53,244 nucleotides of DNA from a virus (lineage: Duplodnaviria > Caudoviricetes), in the IMG/VR virus record IMGVR_UViG_3300027734_000097, positions 1-53,244 of that record; one strand, 5' to 3'. Positions within the stretch are counted from its first letter, which is position 1. Each line of letters opens with the position of its first letter. Positions 1,868 through 39,200 of the stretch are shown here, piece by piece. The position numbers were made by a program, and so were the translations under genes. The notes beneath the pieces are model-generated. The model made no database searches and was not told the origin of the DNA. It was given only the letters and a program-made list of their open reading frames with translations.

Positions 1868-4360
1868 ATGGCAGATATAGATAAAAGTTTAAGTCAAGCT
1901 CCTTTAGGTTTAGAAGAGTTAGCACAAACACAACCCGATTTAAGTATTGAAATAGAAAATCCAGAAAGTGTTACGTTAGATGACGGTAGCATGGAAATTA
2001 CAATTGTTCCTGGTAAAGAACATAACGATGAATTTAATGCTAACTTAGCAGAAGAGTTAGATGAAGGACAACTTACAGAATTATCTGGTGATCTTATTGG
2101 TGAATATGATACGGATATAAGTTCTAGAAAAGATTGGTTAACAACTTATGTAGATGGCTTAGAGTTACTAGGTCTTAAGATTGAAGACCGCACAGAACCG
2201 TGGCCCGGTGCTTGCAATGTATACCACCCCTTAATGACAGAAGCGCTGGTTAAGTTCCAAGCTGAAACTATGATGGAAACATTCCCCGCAGCTGGCCCAG
2301 TTAAAACACAAATCATAGGTAAGCAAACTCCTGAGAAAGAAGAATCTGCACATCGTGTCCAAGAAGACATGAATTACCAATTGACTGATATGATGCCTGA
2401 GTATAGACCTGAACATGAACGCATGTTATGGGGACTAGGTTTAGCAGGTAATGCATTTAAGAAAGTTTATTTTGATCCATCATTACAACGTCAAGTAGCG
2501 ATGTATGTGACTGCAGAAGATATTGTAGTTCCATATGGTGCATCTAATTTAGAAACAACAGAACGTGTTACACACGTGATGAGAAAAACAAAGAATGAAC
2601 TTCGTAAATTACAAGTTGCAGGATTTTATCGTGATGTAGATTTAGGCGAACCATTCTTAGATATTGACGAAGCTGAGAAAAAGATTGCAGAAAAGTTAGG
2701 ATTTAATCCGTCAGAAGATGATAGATATAAAATTCTTGAAATGCATGTTAACTTAGATTTAGAAAATGGTGATAGTGAAGATGGTATTGCAGTACCTTAT
2801 GTTGTAACAATTGAAAAAGGTACAAGTACTATTTTAGCTATACGTCGTAATTGGGATCCAGAAGATAAGTTAAAAGCTAAGCGTCAACACTTTGTGCATT
2901 ACGGTTACATACCAGGATTTGGTTTTTATTGTTTTGGTTTAATTCATTTGATAGGTGCCTTTGCAAAATCCGGTACTATGATCTTACGTCAACTTGTTGA
3001 TGCGGGTACTTTATCAAATTTACCAGGTGGTATGAAGTCACGTGGTCTTAGAATTAAAGGTGATGATACTCCGATTGCTCCAGGTGAATGGCGTGACGTA
3101 GATGTACCAAGTGGTGCTATCCGTGACAACATTTTACCTCTTCCATATAAAGAACCTTCACAAGTATTAAATTCATTGATGAATCAAATCATCGAAGAAG
3201 GTCGTGCATTTGCTAATGCTGAAGGATTAAAAGTTTCTGACATGTCAGCTAACGCACCTGTTGGAACAACATTAGCAATTCTTGAAAGAACATTGAAAGT
3301 AACGTCAGCTATTCAAGCTCGTATTTACTATGCGATGAAACAAGAGTTTAAACTTCTTAAAGGCATCATTCGTGATTACACACCACCAGAATATAATTAT
3401 GATCCAGATGTAGGTGATCGTCGTGCTAAACAATCTGATTATGATGATGTAGATGTAATTCCAGTAAGTGATCCAAATGCAGCAACCATGTCACAAAAGG
3501 TTGTGCAATATCAAGCTGTTATGCAAATGGCACAAGCTAATCCACAAATCTATGATCTAGCAGAACTTAATAAACAAATGTTAGAAGTATTAGGCGTTAA
3601 GAATATTGGTAAACTTATTCCAGCTGCAGAAGATAGAAAACCTAAAGATCCTGTAACTGAAAATATGGCAATCATTAATGGTTCCCCTGTTAAAGCATTT
3701 ATCTATCAAGATCATGAAGCTCATATTAAAGTTCATATGGCAGCAATGCAAGATCCTAAGATAGCAGCACTTATCGGTCAAAATCCTCAAGCACAAACTA
3801 TTCAAGCAGCAGCTATGGCACATATTAATGAACATATTGCATTTGAATATAGAAGACAAATTGAACAAGAGTTAGGTGTTCCATTACCAGCTCCAGATCA
3901 AGTATTACCAGAAGATGTAGAAGTTCAAATATCTCGTTTGTCTGCTGATGCTGCTCAAAAACTATTAGGTAAAGATCAAGCTGAAGTTGCACAACAACAA
4001 ATTGCTCAACAACAACAAGACCCATTAATCCAAATGCAACAACAAGAACTTCAAATTAAACAACAAGAAGTTCAAATTAAAGCACAAAAAGCAATGGCTG
4101 ATATCCAACTTGAACAAGAAAAATTAATGCTTGAAAAAGCTAAGTTTGATTCTCAAGAAAAATTAGAAGGCGCTAAAATTGGTATAAAAGTTGGTGCAGA
4201 TAAACAAAAAACAGAGATGGATGCTCAAAAATTTCAAGCAGAACAACAAGCACGTGGAGTTGAATTAGGTTTAGATGTTGCTAGAACTAATCTTGATCAT
4301 GCACGCCGAAAAGAATTAACGCAAATGAATAAGGAACAAATACAACAACCCAAGGAGTAA
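1868..4360 (+). CDS. Portal protein
   Basis: 830 aa directly after terL; GNAFKKVYFD and GFYCFGLIH segments typical of P22-like portals; long Gln-rich coiled-coil C-terminal barrel. Confidence 0.88.
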   Translation: MADIDKSLSQAPLGLEELAQTQPDLSIEIENPESVTLDDGSMEITIVPGKEHNDEFNANLAEELDEGQLTELSGDLIGEYDTDISSRKDWLTTYVDGLELLGLKIEDRTEPWPGACNVYHPLMTEALVKFQAETMMETFPAAGPVKTQIIGKQTPEKEESAHRVQEDMNYQLTDMMPEYRPEHERMLWGLGLAGNAFKKVYFDPSLQRQVAMYVTAEDIVVPYGASNLETTERVTHVMRKTKNELRKLQVAGFYRDVDLGEPFLDIDEAEKKIAEKLGFNPSEDDRYKILEMHVNLDLENGDSEDGIAVPYVVTIEKGTSTILAIRRNWDPEDKLKAKRQHFVHYGYIPGFGFYCFGLIHLIGAFAKSGTMILRQLVDAGTLSNLPGGMKSRGLRIKGDDTPIAPGEWRDVDVPSGAIRDNILPLPYKEPSQVLNSLMNQIIEEGRAFANAEGLKVSDMSANAPVGTTLAILERTLKVTSAIQARIYYAMKQEFKLLKGIIRDYTPPEYNYDPDVGDRRAKQSDYDDVDVIPVSDPNAATMSQKVVQYQAVMQMAQANPQIYDLAELNKQMLEVLGVKNIGKLIPAAEDRKPKDPVTENMAIINGSPVKAFIYQDHEAHIKVHMAAMQDPKIAALIGQNPQAQTIQAAAMAHINEHIAFEYRRQIEQELGVPLPAPDQVLPEDVEVQISRLSADAAQKLLGKDQAEVAQQQIAQQQQDPLIQMQQQELQIKQQEVQIKAQKAMADIQLEQEKLMLEKAKFDSQEKLEGAKIGIKVGADKQKTEMDAQKFQAEQQARGVELGLDVARTNLDHARRKELTQMNKEQIQQPKE

Positions 4361-4363
4361 CAC

Positions 4364-4558
4364 ATGGACTCAACGCTAGAACTATTATTGTCTCGAATAG
4401 ATGATCAGCGCAAAACAGTATTAATGAATTTGGCAGACGGAGCAGCAAAAGATTTTGCTTCATACCAAAATATGACCGGATATATTCGAGGTTTATCCGT
4501 AGCAGAAGGAATTATTAAAGACCTCGCACAAAGAATGGAGACGTTTGAAGATGAGTGA
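4364..4558 (+). CDS. Small hypothetical protein of the head module
   Basis: AAGGAG RBS, 64 aa, YQNMTGYIRGL motif; lies between portal and GroES-like gene. Confidence 0.75.
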   Translation: MDSTLELLLSRIDDQRKTVLMNLADGAAKDFASYQNMTGYIRGLSVAEGIIKDLAQRMETFEDE

Positions 4559-4997
4559 ACAAATTCTTACGATGAATAAGAACTTGGTTGATGCTAATGG
4601 CCGACCGATTATTATTCCAACAGTAAATGAAGTAGATGCAGAAGATATACCAATTGAAGAAAGAGGTTTACAACTTCCAGACCCAAAAGGCTATAGAATT
4701 TTATGTGCAATTCCAGAAGCAGAGGAAACATATAAAGGTGGCATTGTTAAAGCAGCTGGTGCTAAATCTATAGAGGAACATTCGACTGTAGTTTTATTTG
4801 TAGTAAAAGTAGGTGACTTAGCTTATAAAGATGAAGTCAGATTTCCTACAGGTCCATGGTGTAAAGAGGGTGATTTTGTTCTAACACGTGCATATGCAGG
4901 TACTAGATTCAAGATCCACGGAAGAGAATTCCGCATTATTAACGACGATACGGTTGAGGGGGTTGTAGAAGATCCTCGCGGCTACACTCGCGCATAA
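4551..4997 (+). CDS. groES: GroES/Cpn10-like co-chaperonin
   Basis: PKGYRILC..., mobile-loop-like TYKGGIV, VVKVGDLAY, EGDFVL, and C-terminal GREFRIINDDTVEGVV match the Cpn10 pattern. Confidence 0.85.
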   Translation: MSEQILTMNKNLVDANGRPIIIPTVNEVDAEDIPIEERGLQLPDPKGYRILCAIPEAEETYKGGIVKAAGAKSIEEHSTVVLFVVKVGDLAYKDEVRFPTGPWCKEGDFVLTRAYAGTRFKIHGREFRIINDDTVEGVVEDPRGYTRA

Positions 4998-6036: not shown

Positions 6037-6478
6037 CAACAGACAAGATCGTGAATTACAAACAAGAGAAGAATTTCAAAGACCTGATAGCTGGAAACCC
6101 GCATCATTATTACCTGAGTTTAAAAAGGTACCTGGTTGGGCTTATCGATGGATTAGAACAAGTCTTCTTAACGATGCTGATAATCTAAATGTTTCTTCAA
6201 AAATGCGTGAAGGATGGGAACCCGTTAAATTAGCGGACCACCCTGAAATGAGAATAATGGTTGACCAAAACTCTCGCTTTAAAGAAGGCGTTGAAATTGG
6301 TGGACTATTATTATGCAAGATTCCAGAAGAGTTCGTTGCACAACGTAAGGCTTACTATGAAAACAAATCAAAACAGCAAGCCGATGCAGTTGACAACAGC
6401 TTTATGAAACAGAATGATCCTCGTATGCCTCTCTTCGCAGAGTCAAAAGCAACGACTTCATTCGGTAAAGGTAAATAA
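6029..6478 (+). CDS. Conserved phage head-module hypothetical protein
   Basis: 149 aa with GWAYRWIR, REGWEPV and GGLLLCKIP motifs; coupled to the scaffold gene. Confidence 0.75.
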   Translation: MDNNRQDRELQTREEFQRPDSWKPASLLPEFKKVPGWAYRWIRTSLLNDADNLNVSSKMREGWEPVKLADHPEMRIMVDQNSRFKEGVEIGGLLLCKIPEEFVAQRKAYYENKSKQQADAVDNSFMKQNDPRMPLFAESKATTSFGKGK

Positions 6479-6501
6479 TATAAACATTTAAGGAGATTAA
6501 A

Positions 6502-7125
6502 ATGGCATATCCAACCATTAACAGTCCTTATGGTTTTGAACCAGTTAATCGTTATGATGGTATTCCTTACGCCGGGGCAACTTTACAGATCCCAATTGCG
6601 TCAAGTTACAATACTCCAATCTATAACGGTTCTTCAGTAAAAATCGTAGCGGGCGGCACATTAGAATTATCAGGCACTACAACTTCCGGTACTATTATCG
6701 GTGTGTTCATGGGTGTTCAATACGTTAATTCATCAGGCCAAACAGTTCAAGCTCAATACTACCCAGGTACTAGCGTTACTAACGCTGTTGCTTACGTAGT
6801 TGTTGATGCATCAGCTGAATTCAAAGTAGCATTAACAGTTTCAGGCGCTCCTACAGTAGTAGTTGGTGCTAATGCAACTATTGTTGGTACAAACTTAGCT
6901 GAAATTCAAAACGGTACTGGCTCAACATCAACAGGTAATTCACAAGCTTCATGCGTGATTCCTGCTAACGGTGCTGGATCAACAACAACATTACCATGGA
7001 GAGTAGTTGCAGTAGTTCCTGACACAGCTTATACATCAGGCTCTACAGTACTTTATCCAGAAGTACTTGTAAAAATTAACAACCCACAGTTGACTGCCCT
7101 TACCGGCGTTAATTACGTAGCTTAA
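6502..7125 (+). CDS. Probable capsid decoration/cement protein
   Basis: Strong AAGGAG RBS; beta-rich, G/T/S/V-rich 207 aa immediately upstream of the major capsid gene. Confidence 0.6.
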   Translation: MAYPTINSPYGFEPVNRYDGIPYAGATLQIPIASSYNTPIYNGSSVKIVAGGTLELSGTTTSGTIIGVFMGVQYVNSSGQTVQAQYYPGTSVTNAVAYVVVDASAEFKVALTVSGAPTVVVGANATIVGTNLAEIQNGTGSTSTGNSQASCVIPANGAGSTTTLPWRVVAVVPDTAYTSGSTVLYPEVLVKINNPQLTALTGVNYVA

Positions 7126-7141
7126 CTAAGGAGAACATAAC

Positions 7142-8056
7142 ATGGCTATTTCACGTGCACAGCTCCTAAAAGAGCTATTACCAGGACTTAACGCGCTATT
7201 CGGTTTAGAGTACAAGCGTTACGGAGAAGAACATAAAGAAGTTTATGAAACAGAGACTTCAGAGCGTTCATTCGAAGAAGAAACAAAACTTTCAGGTTTC
7301 TCAGCAGCACCAGTCAAAAACGAAGGCACAGCAATCGCTTATGACAATGCTCAAGAAGCTTGGACAGCTCGATACAATCATCAAACTATCGCTCTTGGCT
7401 TTTCTTTAACAGAAGAAGCTGTAGAAGATAACTTGTATGACACATTATCAGCACGTTACACAAAGGCTTTAGCTCGCGCTATGGCTTACACAAAACAAGT
7501 TAAGGCTGCTGCAGTTCTTAATAATGGCTTCAACACTTCTGGTTCTTACAACGGTGGTGATGGTGTTTCATTATTTAACGTATCTCATCCTCTTGTTTCA
7601 GGCGGTACAAACAGCAACACTCAATCAACTCCTACAGACTTGAACGAAACAGCACTAGAAAACGCTGTTATTCAAATCGCTGCATGGACTGATGAGCGTG
7701 GCCTATTGATCGCTGCTCAACCACGTAAGTTAATTGTTCCACCAGGTAATCAATTCGTTGCAACTCGCTTGCTCGAAACTGAACTTCGTGTTTCAACAGC
7801 TGACAATGATATCAATGCTATTAAGAATAATGGTTCAATCCCAGAAGGTTACGCAATTAACCACTTCTTAACAGACAGCGATTCATACTTCTTAACAACT
7901 GATGTACCTAACGGCATGAAACACTTTGTGCGTACTCCGTTATCTACTTCTATGGATGGTGACTTTGATACTGGTAACGTTCGTTACAAGGCTCGTGAGC
8001 GTTATTCATTTGGTTGGTCAGATCCTCTCGGTATGTGGGGTTCACCAGGTGCTTAA
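7142..8056 (+). CDS. Major capsid protein (HK97 fold, Mu gpT-like family)
   Basis: MAISRAQLLKELLPGLNALFG N-terminus, PRKLIVPP and RYKARERYSFGWSDP motifs; strong RBS, biased codon use, followed by a terminator. Confidence 0.9.
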   Translation: MAISRAQLLKELLPGLNALFGLEYKRYGEEHKEVYETETSERSFEEETKLSGFSAAPVKNEGTAIAYDNAQEAWTARYNHQTIALGFSLTEEAVEDNLYDTLSARYTKALARAMAYTKQVKAAAVLNNGFNTSGSYNGGDGVSLFNVSHPLVSGGTNSNTQSTPTDLNETALENAVIQIAAWTDERGLLIAAQPRKLIVPPGNQFVATRLLETELRVSTADNDINAIKNNGSIPEGYAINHFLTDSDSYFLTTDVPNGMKHFVRTPLSTSMDGDFDTGNVRYKARERYSFGWSDPLGMWGSPGA

Positions 8057-8079
8057 TTAGCAACTGGCTACGTACTACT

Positions 8080-8111
8080 AAGGGACCTGCTTAAAACACA
8101 GGTCCTTTTTT
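8080..8111 (+). terminator. Rho-independent terminator after the capsid gene
   Basis: AGGGACCTG-cttaaaaca-CAGGTCCTT stem-loop running into a T tract. Confidence 0.85.
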
Positions 8112-8204
8112 CATGGTTTTCTCTAGGACTTTGTATCGCAAAAAGAGCAATATATGCGTAGCTACAACGTAGCTTAGTAAAAATACAATACAAAGGAGAA
8201 CAAT

Positions 8205-8276
8205 ATGTGGACTAAACCAGCAGCAACAGAAATGAGATTTGGCTTTGAAGTAACTATGTACGTAATGAACAAGTAA
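8205..8276 (+). CDS. pqqA: Pyrroloquinoline quinone precursor peptide PqqA (23 aa, [23 protein letters not shown])
   Basis: Translated by hand (absent from the ORF track). AAAGGAG RBS at 8192-8198; MW-x-KP start and the E-x-x-x-Y core (EVTMY) that supplies Glu and Tyr for PQQ. Confidence 0.96.
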
Positions 8277-8291
8277 TAAAAACGTATGACT

Positions 8292-8321
8292 AAGACCCCT
8301 AGAAATAGGGGTTTTCTTTTT
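8292..8321 (+). terminator. Rho-independent terminator after pqqA
   Basis: AAGACCCCTA-GAAA-TAGGGGTTTT stem with a GNRA loop, followed by CTTTTT. Confidence 0.88.
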
Positions 8322-8327
8322 ATATTA

Positions 8328-8366
8328 TGCTATAATGCTTGCAAATAGTGCCATTTCAGGTATTAT
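8328..8366 (+). promoter_or_regulatory. Sigma70-type promoter(s) restarting transcription after the pqqA terminator
   Basis: Perfect extended -10 TGCTATAAT (8328-8336); also TTGCAA (8339-8344)-16 nt-TATTAT (8361-8366). Confidence 0.65.
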
Positions 8367-8373
8367 TTGGGAA

Positions 8374-8447
8374 TCCGGGTTACCCGGTTCATTAGACTGT
8401 CCCGGCAGACGCATACAAGACTAATGAGCCTAACTTTGTATGAAGGA
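8374..8447 (+). ncRNA. Putative structured leader RNA (double-pseudoknot pairing potential)
   Basis: GGTTCATTAG (8386-8395)/CTAATGAGCC (8421-8430); CTG/CAG stem with loop TCCCGG complementary to CCGGG (8375-8379); CATACAAG (8412-8419)/TTTGTATG (8435-8442) abutting SD GAAGGA. Confidence 0.65.
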
Positions 8448-8454
8448 AAATATC

Positions 8455-9036
8455 ATGGCACAAACAACATTTAGCGGCCCAGTCGCGTCTCAAAACGGTT
8501 TTATTGGCGGTACAGCAACAGATCCAATCGTAGTAACAACATCAGGCAATATCAGCCAATCATATGCAACTACATCTGCAACATCAGGTGATACACGCTT
8601 ATCTTATAACAAACTAACATTTACAGCAGCAGGTTCTGGCGAAACATTAAGAGCTTTCTCAGTAGTTAATACAGGTACAGCAGCAGTAGGCGGTACAATT
8701 AACGGTGCTCACATCTCTATGGAAGTAGATTCTGCAGGCGCAATTTCAGGTGCAGGTAATGCACTACGCGCTACTTTAGGTGGTACAGCAACTGCTCAAA
8801 CAGGTACATTAGCAGTTATTCAAGCTGATACTAATTTTGGTGCAGGCGTTACAGTTCCAGCTTCAGCATCATTTATTAGAGTAACAGATTCTGGTGCTAC
8901 TACAGGTGCTATTACTAACCTCTTTAACTTACCATCAGCATTAGTTCCAGCTAAGTCAGCAGCAGCAGTGACTCACACAATTAAAATATTAGTTGGTAGC
9001 ACTCCTTACTACTTAATGGTTTCTAACGCACAATAA
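8455..9036 (+). CDS. Probable virion structural protein (head fibre/decoration-like)
   Basis: MAQTTFSGPV N-terminus, A/T/G/S-rich beta-type sequence; start moved from 8440 to 8455 to fit the AAGGA RBS. Confidence 0.7.
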   Translation: MAQTTFSGPVASQNGFIGGTATDPIVVTTSGNISQSYATTSATSGDTRLSYNKLTFTAAGSGETLRAFSVVNTGTAAVGGTINGAHISMEVDSAGAISGAGNALRATLGGTATAQTGTLAVIQADTNFGAGVTVPASASFIRVTDSGATTGAITNLFNLPSALVPAKSAAAVTHTIKILVGSTPYYLMVSNAQ

Positions 9037-18361: not shown

Positions 18362-21300
18362 ATGTCATTACTATCACGTCTTGCCGTTACAGCTGCTAGG
18401 GCTTATGGTAAATTTGCTGGGGGCGGTGGAACTCCTGCCACAGTGTCTGCTAGTTATTTAGTTGTAGCTGGTGGTGGTGCTGGTGCTGGATATAGTGGTG
18501 GTGGTGGAGCTGGAGGTCTTTTAACATCTACAACTACACTATCAACAGCTTCTTCTTATGTTATTACTGTAGGTGCGGGTGGTGCTGGCACGGGTAGTGG
18601 GCAAGGTCCTAGTGGAACTAATTCAGTATTTTCGTCTATTGCAACTGCTCTAGGTGGTGGGGGCGGTGGTGGATATAATGGTTTAAATGGTACCCCTGGA
18701 GGTTCTGGCGGCGGAGGAGGTACTGGAGTCCCTTCACCGGGTAGTGGCGGTACTGGTACAGCTGGTCAAGGTAATAATGGAGGCGCTGCTGGAGCTTATG
18801 CTGGAGCTCCTGGTTCTGGCGGCGGTGGTGGAGGAGCTAGTGCTGTCGGCGGAAATGCTTCTACATATGCATCAGCTGGTAATGGCGGCGCTGGTACTGC
18901 ATCTTCTATTTCTGGTTCATCAGTAACTTATGCTGGCGGTGGCGGTGGTGGGTGTGGATATTCTGCAGGTACAGCAGGTACTGGAGGTTCAGGAGGTGGC
19001 GGTAATGGATGTGGCCCTTCTACTCCTAGTTTTGCTACAAGCGGAACTGCTAACTTAGGTGGTGGCGGAGGAGGTTCTGGATATATAGGTGGATTCTCTG
19101 GTTCAGGCGGTTCAGGCGTAGTCATTGTTTCATATACTGCATCAACTGCATATTTCACAGGTGGCACAGTCACATCATCTGGCGGCAAAATAATTCATAC
19201 ATTTATTCAATCAGACGTACTTAGCCCATTAACAGGCACATTACAAGCATCATACCTAGTCGTAGCTGGAGGCGGCGGTGGAGGTTCTGCTCAAGGCGGT
19301 GGAGGTGGCGCGGGTGGCTTATTAACTGCAGGATTTTCATTAAATAAATCTTTATCATATACAATTCAAGTCGGTGCTGGTGGTACTGGCAGTACAGCTG
19401 GAACTACAGCTTATAATATAGTAGGCGGAAATTCATCTATAGCTGATAGTTTAGGATTGACTACTATTACAGCTTATGGCGGAGGAAAAGGTGCTAATGA
19501 TGTTGCTGGTGCTACTGGTAATGCTGCTAATGGTGGATCAGGTGGTGGTGCTGCAGGAAATAATACTCAACAAGGTAATGGCACTCCAGGACAAGGCTAT
19601 AATGGTGGATGGTCATCGAGCACAACTTATGGTGGTGGTGGGGGTGGAGCAAGTGCTGCAGGATCAACTGGCGCAACTTCAGGAGGTAATGGTGGAGCGG
19701 GCACTGCATCTTCAATTATAGGTTCATCTGTAACCTATGCTGGCGGCGGCGGCGGCGGATCAAATGGTGGAACTGCAGGCACGGGTGGAACTGGTGGCGG
19801 TGCAAATGGATCTTCTACATATACAGTTACTCCTACAGCTGCTCCTGCTAACTTAGGCGGTGGTGGTGGCGGTGGCGGCGGTGGGGGACCTGTTGGAGGC
19901 GCTGGTGGCGCTGGTGGTTCTGGTATTGTTATTATTTCATATCCAGGCTCTCAAGTATTTACAGGCGGTACAGTTACATCATCTGGTGGAAACACAATTC
20001 ACTCATTTACATCTTCAAGTATGTTAGTACCTACTGCAAATTATTTATCAGGTCAATATTTAGTTGTAGCAGGCGGTGGCGGTGGTGGTAGAGATGGCGG
20101 TGGCGGTGGTGGCGCTGGTGGATTGTTAACTAATACATCTACTACAATTGATTCTACAGCTACTTATACTATTATTGTAGGTGCTGGTGGTAATGGAGTC
20201 TCTCTTAGCAATATTTATCCAAATAATGGAAGCAATTCATCTTTTGGTGCTTTTACTGCTACAGGTGGTGGAGGTGGTGGAGGTGGCGGAACTGCTCCAT
20301 ATCAACCAGGATTAAATGGAGGATCTGGCGGAGGTGCATCTGGATCTAGTGGTACTAGTTATTTGGGCGGATCTGGAATTGCTGGACAAGGTAATAATGG
20401 TGGTGGGTCAAATGGTGCTACTAATGGGGGTGGCGGTGGTGGTGGATCTAGTGCTGCTGGTGGAACTAATACAGGAGGCCCAAGTGCTACTGGTACAGGC
20501 GGTGCAGGTACAGCATCTTCAATCACAGGATCTAGTGTAACTTATGCAGGTGGTGGCGGAGGTGGATCAAGAGCTGCTGCCGTATCTACAGGAGGTTCTG
20601 GAGGTGGCGGTAATGGTGCTGGCGCTAGTGCACCATATCCATCTACAGCAGGAACTGCTAATACTGGCGGAGGAGGTGGAGCTGGTAGCGCATCATTTGG
20701 AAATGGTCAAAATGGCGGTTCAGGTATTGTTATTGTCCGCTATACATCAGGTACACAAAAATTTACAGGTGGTACGGTAACTACTTCAGGTGGTGACTAT
20801 ATTCACTCATTTACAACATCAAGCCAATTAGTACCTACTGCAAATGCTTTAGCGGCGCAATATTTAGTTGTAGCTGGCGGCGGTGGCGGTGGTGGATCAG
20901 AAGGCGGAGGTGGTGGCGCTGGCGGACTATTATACAATACAACTTCTACTATCGACACTACTATTTCTTATGCGGTTGTAGTTGGTGGTGGTGGAACTGC
21001 AGGTGCTGGCGGAAACTCTGGATATAGAGGAGGAAATGGAGGTAGTTCTCAATTTGGTTCTATTATCGCTTTAGGTGGTGGAGGTGGAGGTGGTAATGAT
21101 ACCCCTGACAATCCTGGTGCTACTGGTGGTTCAGGTGGTGGTGGTGCTTCAGCTAGTGGAACTGCTGGATTAGGTACAGCAGGTCAAGGTTACAATGGCG
21201 GCGCTGGTGCTAGTGCACCTAATTATTCAGGCGGTGGCGGTGGCGGTGCTAGTGCTGCTGGTACTTCTGGTACAACTACGGTAGCGGGTCCTGGTGGTGC

Positions 21301-22441
21301 AGGATCAACAATATCTATATCAGGATCAGGACTTAATTATGCTGGTGGTGGTGGTGGATCTACATATAATGGCGGTACTGCCGGTGGTGGTGGTTTAGGT
21401 GGTGGTGGCGCTGGTGGTACTGCGCCAAGCCCTGTAGGAGAGGCAGGATCCGCTAATAGAGGTAGTGGTGGCGGTGGCGGTTATGCTCCAGCTTCTGCTC
21501 CTTATTATCCAGGTGGTACAGGTGGATCAGGTATTGTTATTGTTCGTTATACATCTGCATCTGCTAAATTTACTGGTGGTACTATCACAACATCTGGCGG
21601 TGACCAAATTCATACATTTACTTCATCTGGCGTATTAGCACCTAATACTGGTACATATCAAGCTACATATTTAGTGGTTGCCGGTGGTGGATCTGGGGGT
21701 AATACATATGGCGGTGGCGGTGGAGCTGGTGGATATGTAGCAGGCACTACTTATTTAACATCAGGTATATATTATGGTGTTGTAATTGGGGCTGGAGCAA
21801 GTATAGTAACTGCTCAATATGCAGCTGGACTTAATGGATCAAATTCATCTTTAGGCAATATTATTGCTATAGGTGGCGGTGCTGGTGGTGGTAATTTAAG
21901 TGCTGGAAATGTTACAGGTGCTGCATATGGTGGTTCAGGCGGTGGCGGTGGTGGTAAAGGAGATTACAGTTATCCTGGTGCTCAAGGTTCACCGGGTCAA
22001 GGTTATGCAGGTGGAAATGGAAGTACAAGCACTGCAGCAGGTGGTGGTGGTGGTTCAAGTGCTGTAGGAAGTAATGGATCAAGTACAACAGGAGGCGCTG
22101 GAGGAGCAGGTACAGCTAACTCAATTACAGGATCATCAGTAACTTATGCTGGTGGAGGTGGTGGATGTGGTACAGGTACCGGAGGTTCTGGCGGGTCAGG
22201 CGGTGGTGGTGGCGGCGGTACAGGTTCTACTGTTCCAGGTACTGCAGGTACTGCTAATAGAGGTGGCGGTGGAGGTGGAGGTACAGGTTCTTATGGCGGC
22301 GCAGGTGGATCAGGATTAGTTATTCTTTCTATCCCAACTGCTAACTATAATGCTGCTAATGCAGGTGGTGCTCCAACAATCACTACAAACGGATCTAATA
22401 CTGTGCTAACATTTAATGCATCAGGTTGGTATAAAGCTTAA
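18362..22441 (+). CDS. Glycine-rich tail fibre/receptor-binding protein with five tandem domains
   Basis: Five units starting YLVVAGGG (~18455, 19253, 20057, 20861, 21668), each ending GGSG(I/V/L)V(I/V)...; polyglycine runs. Confidence 0.85.
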   Translation: MSLLSRLAVTAARAYGKFAGGGGTPATVSASYLVVAGGGAGAGYSGGGGAGGLLTSTTTLSTASSYVITVGAGGAGTGSGQGPSGTNSVFSSIATALGGGGGGGYNGLNGTPGGSGGGGGTGVPSPGSGGTGTAGQGNNGGAAGAYAGAPGSGGGGGGASAVGGNASTYASAGNGGAGTASSISGSSVTYAGGGGGGCGYSAGTAGTGGSGGGGNGCGPSTPSFATSGTANLGGGGGGSGYIGGFSGSGGSGVVIVSYTASTAYFTGGTVTSSGGKIIHTFIQSDVLSPLTGTLQASYLVVAGGGGGGSAQGGGGGAGGLLTAGFSLNKSLSYTIQVGAGGTGSTAGTTAYNIVGGNSSIADSLGLTTITAYGGGKGANDVAGATGNAANGGSGGGAAGNNTQQGNGTPGQGYNGGWSSSTTYGGGGGGASAAGSTGATSGGNGGAGTASSIIGSSVTYAGGGGGGSNGGTAGTGGTGGGANGSSTYTVTPTAAPANLGGGGGGGGGGGPVGGAGGAGGSGIVIISYPGSQVFTGGTVTSSGGNTIHSFTSSSMLVPTANYLSGQYLVVAGGGGGGRDGGGGGGAGGLLTNTSTTIDSTATYTIIVGAGGNGVSLSNIYPNNGSNSSFGAFTATGGGGGGGGGTAPYQPGLNGGSGGGASGSSGTSYLGGSGIAGQGNNGGGSNGATNGGGGGGGSSAAGGTNTGGPSATGTGGAGTASSITGSSVTYAGGGGGGSRAAAVSTGGSGGGGNGAGASAPYPSTAGTANTGGGGGAGSASFGNGQNGGSGIVIVRYTSGTQKFTGGTVTTSGGDYIHSFTTSSQLVPTANALAAQYLVVAGGGGGGGSEGGGGGAGGLLYNTTSTIDTTISYAVVVGGGGTAGAGGNSGYRGGNGGSSQFGSIIALGGGGGGGNDTPDNPGATGGSGGGGASASGTAGLGTAGQGYNGGAGASAPNYSGGGGGGASAAGTSGTTTVAGPGGAGSTISISGSGLNYAGGGGGSTYNGGTAGGGGLGGGGAGGTAPSPVGEAGSANRGSGGGGGYAPASAPYYPGGTGGSGIVIVRYTSASAKFTGGTITTSGGDQIHTFTSSGVLAPNTGTYQATYLVVAGGGSGGNTYGGGGGAGGYVAGTTYLTSGIYYGVVIGAGASIVTAQYAAGLNGSNSSLGNIIAIGGGAGGGNLSAGNVTGAAYGGSGGGGGGKGDYSYPGAQGSPGQGYAGGNGSTSTAAGGGGGSSAVGSNGSSTTGGAGGAGTANSITGSSVTYAGGGGGCGTGTGGSGGSGGGGGGGTGSTVPGTAGTANRGGGGGGGTGSYGGAGGSGLVILSIPTANYNAANAGGAPTITTNGSNTVLTFNASGWYKA

Positions 22442-33208: not shown

Positions 33209-36200
33209 ATGCCTATAGCAAGATTTCAGATGCCTGATGGCAAGATTGCCAAGTATGAGGTACCAGAAGGTCTATCCCCTGAAGAAGTTGAAAATTTAAT
33301 TCAGCAAGAAATTGGACTACAAAAACAAGAACTAGAAGCTCATCAAAAGAAAACAGGGTTCATGCCTGCGTTAAAAGCAGGTGCTCGTGGATTCCTAGGT
33401 GGCGCTGAAGAAGCATTAGGTTTTGATAAAGCTGCCGCAGAACAATTTCAAAAAGCTGCACAATCATACGAAGGCACTACAGAAGAAGATATAGCTCGTG
33501 CTAAAGAGCAAGGCGTTCTTTCTACAATCGGTGCATACAAATCTAAATATTTAACTGAACCCCTTGGTGGTATTGTAGGTAGGTTCGGTGCTCCTATGGC
33601 TGCTGCTGCTGTTCTCCCAGAAAGTTTAATTGGTACTGGTGCCGCTGCAGCACTTGCTCGTGCTGGTGCTATGTATGCTACTGATTTACCAGCTGAAGTT
33701 GGTGAGAATATACAAAGACAAAAAGAACGCGGTCAAGAAGTTGATCGAGGCGCTGCAACACTTGCAGGGTTAGCTCAAGCAGCAATTGCTGCCGTAGGTA
33801 TTCCAGGTTCAGGTGCTATTACTAAATTGTTAGGACCTCGTTTATTAGCAGAAGCTGAAGCATTAGCACCACGTGTTAGAGCTGGGGTATTAACTCAAGA
33901 ACAAGCCGTTCAACAACTATCATCTAAAGGTATTGAATTTGCCCGTGCTACTGCAGCTAACGCTGTGACAGGTACAGGACTTATGATTGGTACTGAAGAA
34001 TTACGTCGGGCTCAAGCAGGTCAAGAGTTCATGACTCCAGAAGAATTAAAAGAAACAGCAGTACAAGGTTTAGCTATTGCTCCTGTATTTGGTGCATTAC
34101 ATGGATTTGGTGCACGAGGTAAAGCTGAAGCTTACTTAACAGAAGCACAGAAAGCTCGCGAAGAACAAGTTAAAAATATTCTTGATACTAGATATAAACT
34201 TGCAAGCACTGATGAAAAAGTTAGACTACAAAAAATGATGGAAGATGAGCAGTTCAAAGAACAACTACGTACTAAAATTCATAGCGAAACTGATAGACCT
34301 GTTCAAGAAATTATTGATGAAGTAGTAGGTGTTAAAGCTGAACCTACAGAAAAAGAAACAGAGAAAGCACAAAAGAATGTTAAGGCTGCACTTAATGAAC
34401 CGTCAGGTCAATGGGTAGTAGATCCTGAAACACAAGTAGAACGCCAACTTACTATAGGTGAATTACAAAAGATTCAAAACCCAGAACTATTTACAGGGGA
34501 AGAAGCAAACATTGTAGAACCTACTATAGTTACAGATAAAACCTTAACTGACTTAGGTATTGGGGCAAGCACACCGCTTGTTAAAAAAGGTGGATTACGT
34601 GGACTTGATTTAAATAAACCTGAAGAAGCACAGCAATTTATAGAGGGTATTACTGCGTTTGGTAGTCAAGCTAAGTTAGATCAAAAGATTAAAGACGCAA
34701 TTGATACAAAAGTAAAAGAACTCCAAGATAAACAGAAAGAGGCTGAAGATGCTAGACTTAGGACCGCAGGAGATACAAGTGGTGTTCAAATATCTGGAAG
34801 ACCCGGACAAGAATCCGTTGCCGGAGAACCTACAACAACTGACAGACTTAGAGCTGATGAGCTTACAACTGATACTAGACCAACTGAAATGGGAACGCAG
34901 GGACGCGGTACTCCACTAGCTCCTACATCAAAGGAAGTATTGAAATCCTCTAAAGAACTTACACCAGAAGCAAAAGATTTATTATCTACTGTAGATAAAG
35001 GTGGTGTTCCTGGATTCATGACTAATAATCTACGACGTATCGCAAAAGAAAATGGTATAGAAGTAACACCTAAAGATACACCAAATACTGTTATAGATAG
35101 ACTTCGTAGTAAACAAGCTCCTGAAACAAAAGAAGTTATTAAAACCGCTGATGAATTAGCAAAAGAATATAAAGGTCCAACTTTATTAGCTCAATTAAAA
35201 CGTCTTGGTGGTGTATCTTTAGCAGATAAATTAGATGTTACAGGTGAAAGAGCAAGACCAGCTCCAGGCGGATACAATACTATATTTACATCTAAGACAG
35301 AGAAGGGCTTAATGAATCATATTGAGTCTGGTAGTTTAGATGAGTTCTTACCTTATGATATGCGTTTACAAGGTGGTATGCATGAAGCTCGAGGCGAAGC
35401 ATATGACCCTCGTCCAGCTTATGATTATCTTGCTGATCGTATTAGTAATGGTGAAAAAATATTGCCATTTGAGTTAGAACAAAATATGCGTCAAGCTAAA
35501 GAAATAGAACGAGACATGGCTCAAGAAGAAGCTCCGTTGCGTACACTTGAATCATATCCAGAGGGAACTACTATAGAACAAGCTAGAGCTAAACCGAGAG
35601 AATCGATTAGTGAATTTTTAGCTAGAGCAACTCCAGAAGAATTAGAAGCTTTCAGACAAAAAAATCGTGCGTTAGATATGTCTGATGAAGGAAGACGTTT
35701 AAGAGCCGAAGAACAGGCTAATAAAGACTTAGCAGAAGCTGCGTCAGTAGAAAAAGATATTATGTATGCTAAGTATGAACCACTTAAACCTGATTGGATT
35801 ACTTCTGATGTATGGAGTAAATATGACTTTGCTCAAGAGATGCGTAAAAGAGCTGAGTCAGGAAAAGATTTTGATATAGGTAATGATTACCAAGCACATA
35901 GAGCTTTAGAAAAAGCTGTAAAACAAGCATACCCAGAGAAAGATGTAAGAGATGTTTTAGCTAGAGTTAAAGATGAATATGATGCAAAAGTAATGCCTAT
36001 TAAAGAAGCTCGTGGTGAGGCTGCATTAACAAGAGAAACACCAGAGACAATTATAAAAGCTCTTAAAGAACGTTTTGGTAATAATGTTCAAAAAGCAATT
36101 GAACGTGAAGACTTAGTATTAATTAAGAGTAAAGATGTACCAACTAATATAGCAAAAGATGCAGTGGCATACTTTGAAAAAGGTGTAGCTCATTTAATTG

Positions 36201-39200
36201 TTGATCGTTTATCTAGAGAAGATGCACCACGTAAGTTATTACATGAAGTAGGTGTTCATTATGGTCTTGAAGGTATGCTTGGTAAAGCTCTTTATAAAGA
36301 TGTTTTACGTACTATTAATAGGCTAAAAGAAACAGACAAAGATGTTAAAGCTGCATTTGATCATGTATCTAAACGCTATAAAGATTTAAAACCAGATGCA
36401 TTCACAGAAGAAGTATTAGCTCGTCTTGGTGAATCAGCTCCTAATCATTCTATATGGCGTCGTGCAGTTGCAGCTATTAAAGAATTCCTATTTAAAAAAG
36501 GTTTATGGAATCCTAATCGTATGGATGTCCGTGATATTCTTGATCTAGTTAATCGCTCTACGCAGAAGTCTTTAGCAGGTGAAGTTAGACCTTTAACAAG
36601 AACTGATAACTTCAAAGCTTGGTTTGGTAAGTCTAAGATTGTAGATGGAGAAGGTGTACCACTACGTTTATATCACGGTACTTCAGAAAACTTTGATGTA
36701 TTTAAACACCCTTCAGAAACTAAAGGACCAAAAGGTGGTTTTATTGATACACAAGGATTTTATTTTACTGCAGATCCTGGTGTTGCTGAAGTTTATGCTG
36801 ATCACTTTGGAAGAAATATTAAATATGGCCCTAAAGGATTAATTAGAAAAGCCGCTAATCAAACAATTGTTCCTGTTTATCTACGCATGGAAAACCCTTT
36901 TGTTGTAGATATGAAAAAACCTTTTGATCATCCTTCTCATGAAGCAATTAAACAAGGAAGAATTGATAATGAAGTAATGACTAATTTAAAATCAAAAGGG
37001 TATGATGGTGTTATTTTAAAGAAAGATAATGGCAGAAATGAGTATGTAGCTTTTGATGCTAATCAAATTAAATCTGCTACAGGTAATCGCGGTACATTTG
37101 ATATTGAACGTCCTGAAATACAGTATGCTAAAGGCGAAGAAAGAACTGCACCTATATCAGAACAATATAAAGCAACGAAAGTATTTGCATCTCCTGCTGA
37201 AGAAGCGGATAAGAGTTTCAAAGAACATGTAGGTGGTATATTAGACCGTGCAAAAAATATTGATAGAGGCACAATGGATCGTGCATTTACGGGAGCTCGT
37301 ATTAAAGTAGCTAACCCAGCAGCTGGTGTTCAAACAGAACTTATTAGAAAATATAATGGTGCTGTAGTAGATGCTATGGGTAATATGAGAGCTGATATCG
37401 CTCATGATCAAGCACTTGATAGTAATATACTTGGTGCTACATCTGCTAAATATGGTAGAGTTGTTTTAGATAAAGCGATGGGTGCTAAAGTTGTTGATGA
37501 TCCTAATAATTTATATGCAGTCTTTGATCAATTAAAAGTATTGTCTAGTCGTATTGGTGCAGTAGATGCAGAACATGTAGGTGGGGCATACTTACAAGCA
37601 TTACGTTATGATGAAATATTAAAAGCAAATGATAGCATCGATGCTAAGATAGATAATCTTAAAGAGAATCTTAAAAAAGATAAGAAGGAAGCCTATGCTA
37701 AAGGTAAGCCTAAAGATATTAATGCCTATAAAGAACTTGAAAATAAAACAGCAAGACTTATTGTTGAATTAAAAGATAAGAAAAAAGAAGTATCTGATGC
37801 ACAAAAAGCAGCTATCCCTGCAGCTTTAGACTATGCAAACCAATTTCCTGAGATCAAACGTATTGCTGAAATCTATGACAAAATTAGATTAGATGAAATT
37901 GATATGCTTGAAAAAGCTGGTGTATATGGTAAAGACTTTGCACAAAAATTACGTGAAACAAAAGGTTATGTACCTCTATTCAGAGTAATGGATGATATTG
38001 AAGCTATTCCAGGCAACGAGGGTGCAAGACAATACTTTAGAGGTTTAGCTGACATTGGTAAAGAATATGCTTTCGAAGGTTCAGAACGCCGTGCTTTAAA
38101 TATCTTTGATAATATGTTAACCCGTCATATGTGGGCAGTAAACGCAGCTGTTAGAAACTTTGCCAATAGACGTATTGCTGATGAGTTAGCTATCAGAACT
38201 GAAGATGGTAAACTTAAAACTTATAACATTATGCCTGAAGGTAAAGCAGATGTTATGACACCTATTTGGATTGATGGTAAAAGAACTTATGTTGAGTATG
38301 CTGATCCTTTCTTTGCAAGAGCAGTCTATGGCGTGGAGCCTGCGTTACCGGGCATACTAGGTTGGTTTGGTAAAGCAAGTAAGATATTACGTACAGGCGT
38401 TACAGCACTTCCTACATTCCAAATATACCAAGTATTTAACGATGCAACTCGTGCCGCTATGATCTCTGGTGTTAATCACCCATTTAAACTTATTGGTGAA
38501 GTAGTAAGTAGCTTTGGTAAGATTCTTAAAGATCAAGAAAATGACCCTATTGTTAGAGAGATGAATAGATTAGGTATTAGTGGTGGTTATGGTCATACAT
38601 CTAAAGAGATTGCAGATAAAATCAGAAGAGATCAAGGTATGTTAGCTACAAGTCTAACTCAAAAAGCTTTTGATAAAGCAGAAAAGTTTGCAGCTACATC
38701 TGATATGGCACAACGTCGTGCGCTCTTTAAACGAAGTTTATTAGAAACAGGTGGTGTAGAACAACCTGACGGATCTATCATCGGTGGTAACAAAGTTCTA
38801 GCTATGGATCGTGCTATGAATATTATCCATTGGCAAAAACATGGTACAAGTAATTCAGTTCGAGTATTAAGCCAAATTGTTCCATTTATGAATGCTTACA
38901 TACAAGGTATGGATATTCTACTTCGCTCTATGAAAGGTGAAGGTATTAGCGGCCGTGAGAGAAAAGAAGCTCAATGGTTGTTTGTATCAACTGCGTTAAA
39001 ACTAAGTGCTTTAGCTACTATCTATAGTATGGCTGTATCAAGTGATGAAGAATATCAAAAGTTAGATGATAGAACTAAAGTAAGATCACTTATTATTCCA
39101 GGCACAGGCTTTAAGATTCCTGTATCTAATGAAGTTGCTATGCTTACTAAAGCTATCCCAGAATTAGGTTGGCAATATGTTACACGTGCTGATACTAATA

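Follow-up and report, generated by a model that had tools for sequence, protein, structure and literature searches.

Does the short stretch that follows the major capsid gene of a tailed phage encode a structured RNA and, if so, what might that RNA do? The locus lies in IMG/VR virus record IMGVR_UViG_3300027734_000097 (Caudoviricetes; 53,244 bp; completeness estimate 84%), the whole of which was analysed and is called the window here. An original prediction had placed a compact leader RNA of four interleaved pairings at 8374–8447 of the window, upstream of the gene that starts at 8455. All four pairings can be read directly from the sequence, and comparative data back each helix. The leader is a genuine conserved structured RNA of the sense strand, with two pseudoknots and under strong selection. 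It belongs to a real, widespread and, as far as we have checked, uncatalogued family of phage messenger RNA (mRNA) leaders that includes abundant ocean phages. The element occurs once per locus, and once in the 53-kb window, where its parts are the following.

8375–8379 CCGGG with 8401–8405 CCCGG, + strand: helix A; its partner strand lies within the loop of hairpin C (pseudoknot 1)
8380–8385, + strand: linker between A and B, variable; 8383–8387 can pair instead with 8375–8379
8386–8395 GGTTCATTAG with 8421–8430 CTAATGAGCC, + strand: helix B, 10 bp including one U.G
8396, + strand: junction between B and C, a single unpaired A, invariant in 86/86 aligned sequences
8397–8399 CTG with 8406–8408 CAG, + strand: helix C, with a loop of 6 nucleotides (nt), T-CCCGG
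8409–8411 ACG, + strand: junction between C and D; A and C invariant, G in 97%
8412–8419 CATACAAG with 8435–8442 TTTGTATG, + strand: helix D, seven Watson-Crick pairs and one G.U; pseudoknot 2 with B
8419–8420 GA, + strand: junction between D and B, invariant
8431–8435, + strand: linker between B and D, short and variable
8443–8447 AAGGA, + strand: Shine-Dalgarno-like sequence directly 3' of helix D

Helix A crosses B and C, and helix D crosses B. The strand order A-B-C-A'-C'-D-B'-D' brings helices B, C and D together in a junction that two pseudoknots lock, all within ~70 nt. Its sub-structures have energies of −11.8 kcal/mol (B + C) and −12.3 kcal/mol (A + D). Nested folding of 8365–8460 gave a minimum free energy of −20.8 kcal/mol with z = 0.01, a score that is uninformative for the leader because the method cannot represent pseudoknots. 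Some of the predicted dimensions have to be trimmed. The 10-bp helix B is present in the window, but its tenth pair is found in under half of the sequences. For helix D, proposed at 8 bp, six pairs are supported (8412–8417/8437–8442), the seventh occurs in about one third of sequences, and the eighth (G8419.U8435), which uses an invariant G, is unsupported. Helix D was also said to end at the Shine-Dalgarno sequence of gene 8455, and so it does, at 8442, immediately before AAGGA at 8443–8447. The GC-rich patch named in the original prediction turns out to be modest, with 48% guanine plus cytosine (GC) against about 38%–40%; the window overall has about 38%.

The evidence that the fold is selected comes from its relatives. 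An IMG/VR search with the downstream protein yielded a gene-derived set of 80 loci, in which the same architecture stands upstream of the gene with different helix sequences. A positional test was made on 46 distinct upstream sequences with a recognizable core (locus L045, which has none, was dropped), with helices B and C defined from anchors. Helix A forms 5/5 pairs in 44 of these 46 sequences, compared with 18.6% when loops are swapped between sequences, and helix D forms 6/6 in 43, compared with 16.9% on swapping. Helix B has all nine pairs in 27 sequences and eight of nine in the other 19, 16 of which share one mismatch beside the closing pair; three to six pair types are seen at eight of its nine positions. 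The middle pair of helix C is UA in 37 sequences, AU in four, CG in three and GC in two.

A second set was collected with a core pattern of 15 specified bases, which matched at least 119 stretches in IMG/VR. Eighty of these were examined, and 67 of the 77 that do not run into an edge have the full motif, defined as at least 8/9 pairs in helix B, 5/5 in A and 6/6 in D. The same pattern applied to bacterial and archaeal genome contigs gave the full motif in one of 80 non-edge matches; these matches are nearly all due to chance and served as a negative control. The sole genome-contig motif (L230) lies on a 12-kb contig of a gammaproteobacterial assembly, with the same type of gene downstream.

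The seed alignment comprises 16 sequences and has no gaps. Of its cells, 95.0% are paired (65.9% after shuffling), and its covariation score is 0.803 (0.221 after shuffling); sliding the registers leaves at most 38.5% paired and a covariation score of at most 0.150. A covariance model built on helices A and D only found one match each in 86 of 90 sources, that in the window being at 8372–8446 with 83.2 bits. The resulting 86-sequence alignment has 93.6% of cells paired (66.1% shuffled, at most 37.6% slid) and a covariation score of 0.732 vs 0.202. Pairing by helix is 99.8% for A, 100% for C and 90.5% for D. For helix B, which is outside this model, it is 92.6%–97.0% by segment and 46.6% at the outermost pair, so that B and C are upheld even though only A and D guided the alignment. 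A model of B and C only matched 87 of 90 sources; in the alignment fitted to it, helix A is still 92.4% paired, each of its five pairs varying on both strands, and helix D is 75.6% paired, a drop that arises because differences in linker length misalign it. In the 86 sequences, pair types in helix A include CG/UA, GC/AU/UA and GC/CG, helix B shows several types everywhere but at its closing G-C, at the middle of helix C 81 sequences have UA, three AU and two CG, and six pairs of D have changes on both sides. The original prediction had called the GC-rich patch unlikely to be random and had proposed looking for covariation upstream of homologues of the gene. Covariation is what we find, with none of 500 shuffles of the seed scoring as high, and in all four helices the pairing survives substitutions in both strands.

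Cells with G.U outnumber those with A.C by 69 to 17, and the selected molecule is therefore the sense-strand RNA. These observations also bear on whether any functional RNA is involved. A DNA-level site, or a recombination cassette in which promoter, leader and N-terminal protein module are inherited together, would explain why the motif travels with the N-terminal arm of the downstream protein while C-terminal domains are swapped. Against it stand the compensatory changes in four helices and, on the sense strand, a tolerance of G.U far above that of A.C. Neither a DNA site nor plain linkage would preserve pairing, and we find such an explanation scarcely credible.

Which nucleotides of the fold are fixed? 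Eleven positions are invariant in 86/86 sequences: G8395, A8396, C8397, G8399, C8406, G8408, A8409, C8410, G8419, A8420 and C8421. Four more (U8398, A8407, G8411 and A8418) are at least 94% conserved in this alignment. Each passage from one helix to the next along the strand is a G-A-C triplet, giving three GAC triplets, and the aligned rows span 31% to 62% in local GC. One metagenome-assembled phage, DSL-LC04, has the closing G-C of helix B exchanged for U-A, a compensatory change in an otherwise fixed pair. A divergent leader in 023Pt_psg01 (L323, 3960–4050), recognized by eye only, keeps helices A–D and lacks the ACG and AGAC junction strings; as a natural junction mutant it may be useful for functional tests.

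Comparison with known families did not yield a name for the element, in keeping with the original prediction, which had assigned none. Rfam 15 (4227 models) searched against 8000–8800 of the window at E up to 10 gave four weak matches, none overlapping 8374–8447, and at gathering thresholds gave zero matches in 12 motif-bearing loci. Mu-gpT-DE (RF03012) is a phage motif found downstream of Mu gpT-like major head genes, and thus in the same neighbourhood. Its model has 53 positions and does not match the leader: the best match in the window is at 6418–6504 with 9.4 bits against a cut-off of 49, and there is none at 8372–8446. The literature on phage structured RNAs, pseudoknots and pelagiphages that we searched does not describe the element, although Fremin et al. 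2023 (PMC10690425) predicted 8,495 candidate structured RNAs in IMG/VR, and their supplementary lists may contain it. None of the available passages of the Minerva preprint (10.64898/2026.09.22.753630) concerned it. Structured 5' leaders are in themselves a known kind of element; what sets this one apart is a fold with no catalogued relative, an unusually clean covariation and an invariant junction.

Motifs of this profile have often proved to be riboswitches, ribozymes or protein operators, and the small ribozymes offer an immediate comparison. Ribozymes like that of hepatitis delta virus (HDV) are similar to the leader in size, in having a nested double pseudoknot and a 3-bp helix with a 6–7-nt loop, and in being common in phage and metagenome DNA. 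The strand order of the leader, however, differs from the order P1-P2-P3-P3'-P1'-P4-P4'-P2' of that fold: the 5' strand of the leader pairs inside a hairpin loop, and its last helix crosses B and is not a hairpin. The Rfam HDV-type models do not match the leader. The hammerhead was rejected as well, the junction strands A, ACG and (A)GA being without its conserved core boxes and no Rfam hammerhead model matching.

The RNA data comprised assembled contigs of four metatranscriptome runs; where an RNA ends cannot be read from such contigs, and DNA may be present in RNA libraries. The entire motif and the start of the gene are spanned by one contig, at 8369–8547 (X16 record 12; 180 nt, 14 differences). 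Two others end at 8396: X15 record 5 (807 nt, 0 differences) and X16 record 13 (1072 nt, 32 differences), which comes from a different study than X15's. The coincidence of these ends at the invariant A8396 is a weak hint only, and may stem from processing, self-cleavage or an assembly effect. Depth is low in bin 8276–8409 in all four libraries, and no listed contig joins the terminator region to the motif, an uncovered stretch to which we attach no weight.

With these data, it seems to us quite unlikely that the leader is a self-cleaving ribozyme or a defined processing site, with scission between G8395 and A8396, after which helices A and B would retain a 23-nt 5' piece while a new 5' end would be left on the mRNA. 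A compact, pseudoknotted three-way junction with an invariant core is what small ribozymes have, the two contig ends agree with the position, and processing would free the downstream mRNA at those loci where a terminator abuts helix A. Yet the contig at 8369–8547 runs through the site, the ends of assembled contigs are not RNA ends, the strand order is unlike that of HDV-like ribozymes, the hammerhead core is absent, and no Rfam ribozyme family matches. HDV-like ribozymes cleave at the 5' end of P1; the shared contig end at 8396 does not coincide with the corresponding end of helix A. The more specific claim, of a new class of small self-cleaving ribozyme built on three GAC triplets and cutting at G8395/A8396, is no likelier. 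If the leader were a ribozyme, it would be a new class, and the mRNA for the cement-type protein discussed below would, in very abundant aquatic phages, carry a 5'-OH hidden in a knot.

Where does the transcript that carries the leader begin, and how is the leader placed with respect to its gene? The features concerned are these.

8292–8315, + strand: terminator-like hairpin and T run (10-pair stem, T tail), closing the upstream unit of capsid gene and pqqA-like mini-open reading frame
8339–8366, + strand: predicted sigma-70-type promoter (TTGCAA, 16-nt spacer, TATTAT; 9/12 consensus matches)
8374–8447, + strand: leader RNA element, between the predicted promoter and gene 8455
8455–9036, + strand: downstream gene, 193 amino acids, ATG at 8455

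In an alignment of 126 distinct upstream regions, anchored where helix A begins, 58 have a −10-like hexamer that ends at −9 (31 regions) or −8 (27 regions), and a −10-like hexamer lies within −12 to −5 in 78. The window's TATTAT (8361–8366) ends at −9, with a predicted start at about 8373, and the promoter text is conserved in close relatives. Transcription is thus predicted to start 1–2 nt before helix A, and the leader probably stands at the 5' end of the transcript, because the −10-like box ends 8–9 nt before that helix. The original prediction put the element just downstream of a promoter; in the window this is a consensus match only, and the placement is backed by the comparative −10 peak. 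A terminator-like hairpin is found at most 60 nt upstream in 77 of the 126 regions. At the other end, the 3' end of helix D lies 9–19 nt before the start codon (mode 13–15) in 135 instances, with the Shine-Dalgarno sequence directly after it; in variants of the type found in Pelagibacter phage HTVC027P, helix D overlaps the Shine-Dalgarno sequence. Since this sequence is usually beside helix D and not within it, classical Shine-Dalgarno sequestration is not an evident mechanism.

This geometry would suit a constitutive 5'-end cap and translation enhancer with no partner in trans except the ribosome. The knot would block the pyrophosphohydrolase and RNase E-type entry and present the Shine-Dalgarno sequence, making for a long-lived and well-translated mRNA for a protein that is required in amounts on the scale of the capsid. 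Structures at the 5' terminus that leave few nucleotides unpaired stabilize bacterial mRNAs; the predicted start is 1–2 nt before helix A in most loci, the Shine-Dalgarno sequence is unpaired beside helix D, the product appears to be a stoichiometric capsid component, and the gene has its own predicted promoter after the capsid terminator. A simple hairpin would suffice for such a role, however, and eleven invariant nucleotides together with conserved helix C pairs across GC-diverse hosts point to recognition or chemistry; some loci, moreover, have no promoter-like box. We take a bare cap and enhancer to be unlikely, though an alternative of some weight.

The gene under this leader is nearly always of one kind. 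A protein of the MA-x-TTFSGPV type (arm of the form M-[AGS]-x-T-T-F-x-G-P) is encoded downstream in 131 of 135 instances. The 193-residue protein of the window begins with the arm MAQTTFSGPVASQNGF, which is common to a very large set of phage proteins, and the region after the arm, of 67–305 residues, is often unrelated between loci. By their sequences, the arm-bearing proteins look like an exchangeable-domain family anchored by one arm. The original prediction had the element gating the post-capsid structural genes; this has to be narrowed, the element being tied to one gene family and not to structural genes generally. Over the first ~17 codons (MA-x-TTFSGPV-x-S-x-NGF; 8455–8505 in the window), the window and loci L081–L199 show conservation at the protein level with synonymous variation. 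A model match stands directly upstream, ending ~10 nt before the gene, in 69 of the 80 gene-derived loci. The 11 misses are two with no upstream DNA (L007 and L014), four with homology from residue 19, a different N-terminus and no leader (L028, L040, L057 and L058), four with divergent leader variants visible by eye (L076–L079), and L045, which encodes the arm but has no motif.

Several named phages were located with the RNA motif as a DNA query. Pelagibacter phage HTVC023P has the canonical motif between capsid gene gp40 and the hypothetical gp41 (82.6 bits), and the motif's downstream gene is followed by a hairpin and a new intergenic region. HTVC027P has a variant before gp62 that matches the model partially (17.7 bits), with four helices visible by eye, and DSL-LC04 has a variant (33.7 bits) before a gene annotated "cement protein". 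Both Pelagibacter phages are cultured systems on Pelagibacter HTCC1062, and an infection RNA-seq series exists for HTVC027P (PMC12753301). Roseobacter phage CRP-902, whose capsid gene is annotated gpT-like, encodes the arm with no motif detected.

What the downstream protein does has to be read largely from a sister class. The window protein itself has no family match in Pfam or PHROGs; the diverse downstream proteins match only phrog_36974, of unknown function. Searches of the GenBank phage collection by tblastn with the window protein and that of L095 gave no match, and sequence searches of the PDB gave chance-level matches only. A protein atlas returned unnamed viral clusters only, apart from Phage_cement_2 as a lead below threshold (score 0.78). 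For the window protein, AlphaFold gave a model with almost no regular structure (predicted local distance difference test, pLDDT, 66.8), which was left out of the fold search. A sister class of 151 residues has the same arm and leader. At E ≤ 1e-5 its relatives number more than 3,716, and among them is the protein annotated "cement protein" in the DSL-LC04 record. The model of the sister class is a jelly roll behind a disordered arm, with pLDDT 84–93 over residues 30–148, low confidence over the first 29 residues and 75.8 overall. The top Foldseek matches are capsid chains of cyanophage Pam1, Helicobacter phage KHP30 and Ralstonia phage GP4, and the "trimeric cement protein" of KHP40 is matched as well (all E 1e-4 to 1.5e-3, TM 0.48–0.63); the best is Pam1 capsid chain H (E 1.1e-4, TM 0.56–0.60). 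The arm-bearing family probably consists of capsid cement or decoration proteins, because the modelled fold of the sister class matches capsid and cement chains. The window protein shares only the N-terminal arm with this class and is probably a cement or decoration protein too, judging by the arm and the position of its gene. On this reading, the N-terminal arm would bind the capsid, and the C-terminal domain could be exchanged.

The attachment to one structural gene family bears on two further explanations. In the first, the element is a small-molecule or ion riboswitch whose junction forms a ligand pocket, binding of which would stabilize helix D and alter access to the Shine-Dalgarno sequence. 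Its size, pseudoknots and invariant unpaired nucleotides resemble those of small pseudoknotted aptamers. The Shine-Dalgarno sequence is abutted or overlapped by helix D, and the 5' strand of helix A has a lineage-specific alternative hairpin. This hairpin had been offered in the original prediction as a competing fold. It does exist in the window (8375–8379/8383–8387, −6.1 kcal/mol) but is not family-wide, being present in 42 of 135 instances, in 23 of 30 of the window's CCGGG class and in none of the 40 instances with CCTAG; in the window's lineage it may be a folding intermediate or a switch. We think a riboswitch improbable, as the family is tied to genes for structural proteins and not to metabolic or transport genes, most members have no conserved alternative pairing that hides the Shine-Dalgarno sequence or forms a terminator, and no Rfam aptamer matches. 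The competing hairpin is also seen in 3/3 instances of the CCAGG class and 5/6 of the CTGGG class, and the competing partner co-varies with the 5' strand of helix A (CCAGG with CCTGG, CCGGG with CCCGG).

In the second, the leader is a processive antitermination RNA like put of HK022, with the knot binding RNA polymerase and allowing terminator read-through across the late operon. The element comes directly after a predicted promoter and heads ~31 kb of co-oriented genes (+ strand genes run from 8455 to ~39919 in the window), and an invariant core would suit the binding of a conserved host machine. A fixed spacing to the Shine-Dalgarno sequence and start codon of one gene family would not be expected of a polymerase modifier, nor would the overlap of helix D with the Shine-Dalgarno sequence in some variants, and in HTVC023P the hairpin and new intergenic region come after a single downstream gene. 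Antitermination is, in our estimate, very improbable.

The reading that we favour, tentatively and at somewhat less than an even chance, is a 5'-terminal leader acting in cis, which sets the output of the cement-type protein and is recognized by a macromolecule; we infer both the cis action and the partner. By analogy with known 5'-terminal stabilizers, helix A would bury the 5' terminus and slow 5'-end-dependent decay, and helix D would hold the Shine-Dalgarno sequence at the base of a rigid knot. The macromolecule would recognize the invariant junction with its three GAC triplets. The simplest partner would be a repressor of translation, either cement protein not yet assembled or another late phage protein; the ribosome would be an alternative. 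The amount of cement-type protein made would thereby be matched to capsid assembly. This combination is preferred because a bare 5' stabilizer explains the position of the element but not its invariant junction. Should the cement protein prove to read the leader as an operator, capsid assembly and translation would be linked by direct feedback.

Three kinds of known RNA help to place such a leader. The pseudoknot operators of Escherichia coli rpsO/S15 and T4 gene 32 also have a pseudoknot directly upstream of the Shine-Dalgarno sequence, a product that is stoichiometric for assembly, and conservation of helices and specific unpaired bases. They differ in that the leader has two pseudoknots on a three-way junction and starts at the predicted transcript start, and neither in sequence nor by Rfam model does it resemble them. 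Helix D does adjoin or overlap the Shine-Dalgarno sequence as in H-type pseudoknot operators, which makes for a class that works alike and not a sequence family. Like the 5' stabilizing stem-loops of the ompA type, the leader is predicted to begin within 1–2 nt of the 5' end of the mRNA for a highly expressed structural protein. Those stem-loops, however, are simple hairpins with no sequence requirement, whereas the leader has eleven invariant nucleotides and four covarying helices. Flavivirus exonuclease-resistant RNAs (xrRNAs), which have no sequence similarity to the leader, are likewise units of ~70 nt with a junction inside a closing helix; internal elements pair with the 5' and the 3' flank, and the resulting double pseudoknot wraps the 5' end. 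In the leader, the hairpin loop takes up the 5' flank and a junction strand takes up the 3' flank, which is the reverse of the xrRNA arrangement, and the host enzymes differ. By analogy, then, the leader would work most like the pseudoknot operators and 5'-terminal stabilizers, while its topology recalls the xrRNAs with the roles of the pseudoknots exchanged.

A number of observations weigh against the favoured reading or its parts. Most of the 86–87 rows were retrieved with the core pattern, whose bases are specified in advance, and had passed a helix filter, which inflates the percentage paired and the invariance. The gene-derived set is free of that bias and agrees, but in its alignment only six core positions are strictly invariant, with eight more at 90% or above. 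The invariant junction calls for specific recognition or chemistry of some kind and does not single out a protein, and the coincident ends at 8396 would be explained more directly by processing or self-cleavage. L045 and CRP-902 have the arm and no detectable motif, so that arm conservation is independent of the RNA. The arm has few or no basic residues (that of the window has none), which is unusual for an RNA-binding peptide. Common descent along with one type of capsid would account for the tight linkage of motif and gene. Finally, 21 of the 126 upstream regions have neither a strict −10-like box nor a terminator (several have TTGACA and a weaker −10), and some terminators lie 6–10 nt before helix A, too close for a promoter to fit between; at such loci the fold would not mark a primary 5' end.

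Whatever its mode of action, the element is common, with at least 119 IMG/VR stretches for the strict core pattern and a sister protein family of more than 3,700 members at E ≤ 1e-5. Parts of the window stretch itself are present in 20 of 24 listed sequencing runs from 14 studies of freshwater and lake metagenomes, and RNA libraries make up six of these 20 runs. The surrounding genes of the window are ordered as follows.

288–1856: large terminase
1868–4360: portal
4545–4997, + strand: GroES/Cpn10-like co-chaperonin (Pfam Cpn10, E = 5.9e-6), within the head-gene block
Among the genes between portal and major capsid: scaffold-like acidic protein
7142–8056: major capsid protein (phrog_371)
8205–8276, + strand: pqqA-like open reading frame of 23 codons (Pfam PqqA PF08042, E = 6.4e-11, full profile covered)

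GroES genes are annotated at the equivalent place in HTVC027P and 023Pt_psg01. The pqqA-like frame, between the capsid gene and the leader, is 82%–92% identical in DNA to unannotated or "hypothetical" stretches in ten records of phages of Methylophilales (OM43), among them MEP301, MEP401, MEP402, Venkman, P19250A and four named Melnitz, and in a Caudoviricetes sp. record. Sequence relationships of this kind suggest a methylotroph host and a phage-carried precursor of the cofactor pyrroloquinoline quinone; our literature search on pqqA in OM43 phages found no paper. Depth over this frame is high in one RNA run with loose ends on both sides, which is why we attribute it to the pqqA genes of other organisms.

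No tRNA or tmRNA genes were found in the window. Within the co-oriented block, a + strand open reading frame of 1359 codons (18362–22441) has a GC content of 0.48 vs ~0.38 and a strong GC skew, and may be a recently acquired or compositionally odd tail or fibre gene. The block is closed by a + strand frame of 2236 codons (33209–39919), shortly before a strand switch at ~40 kb.

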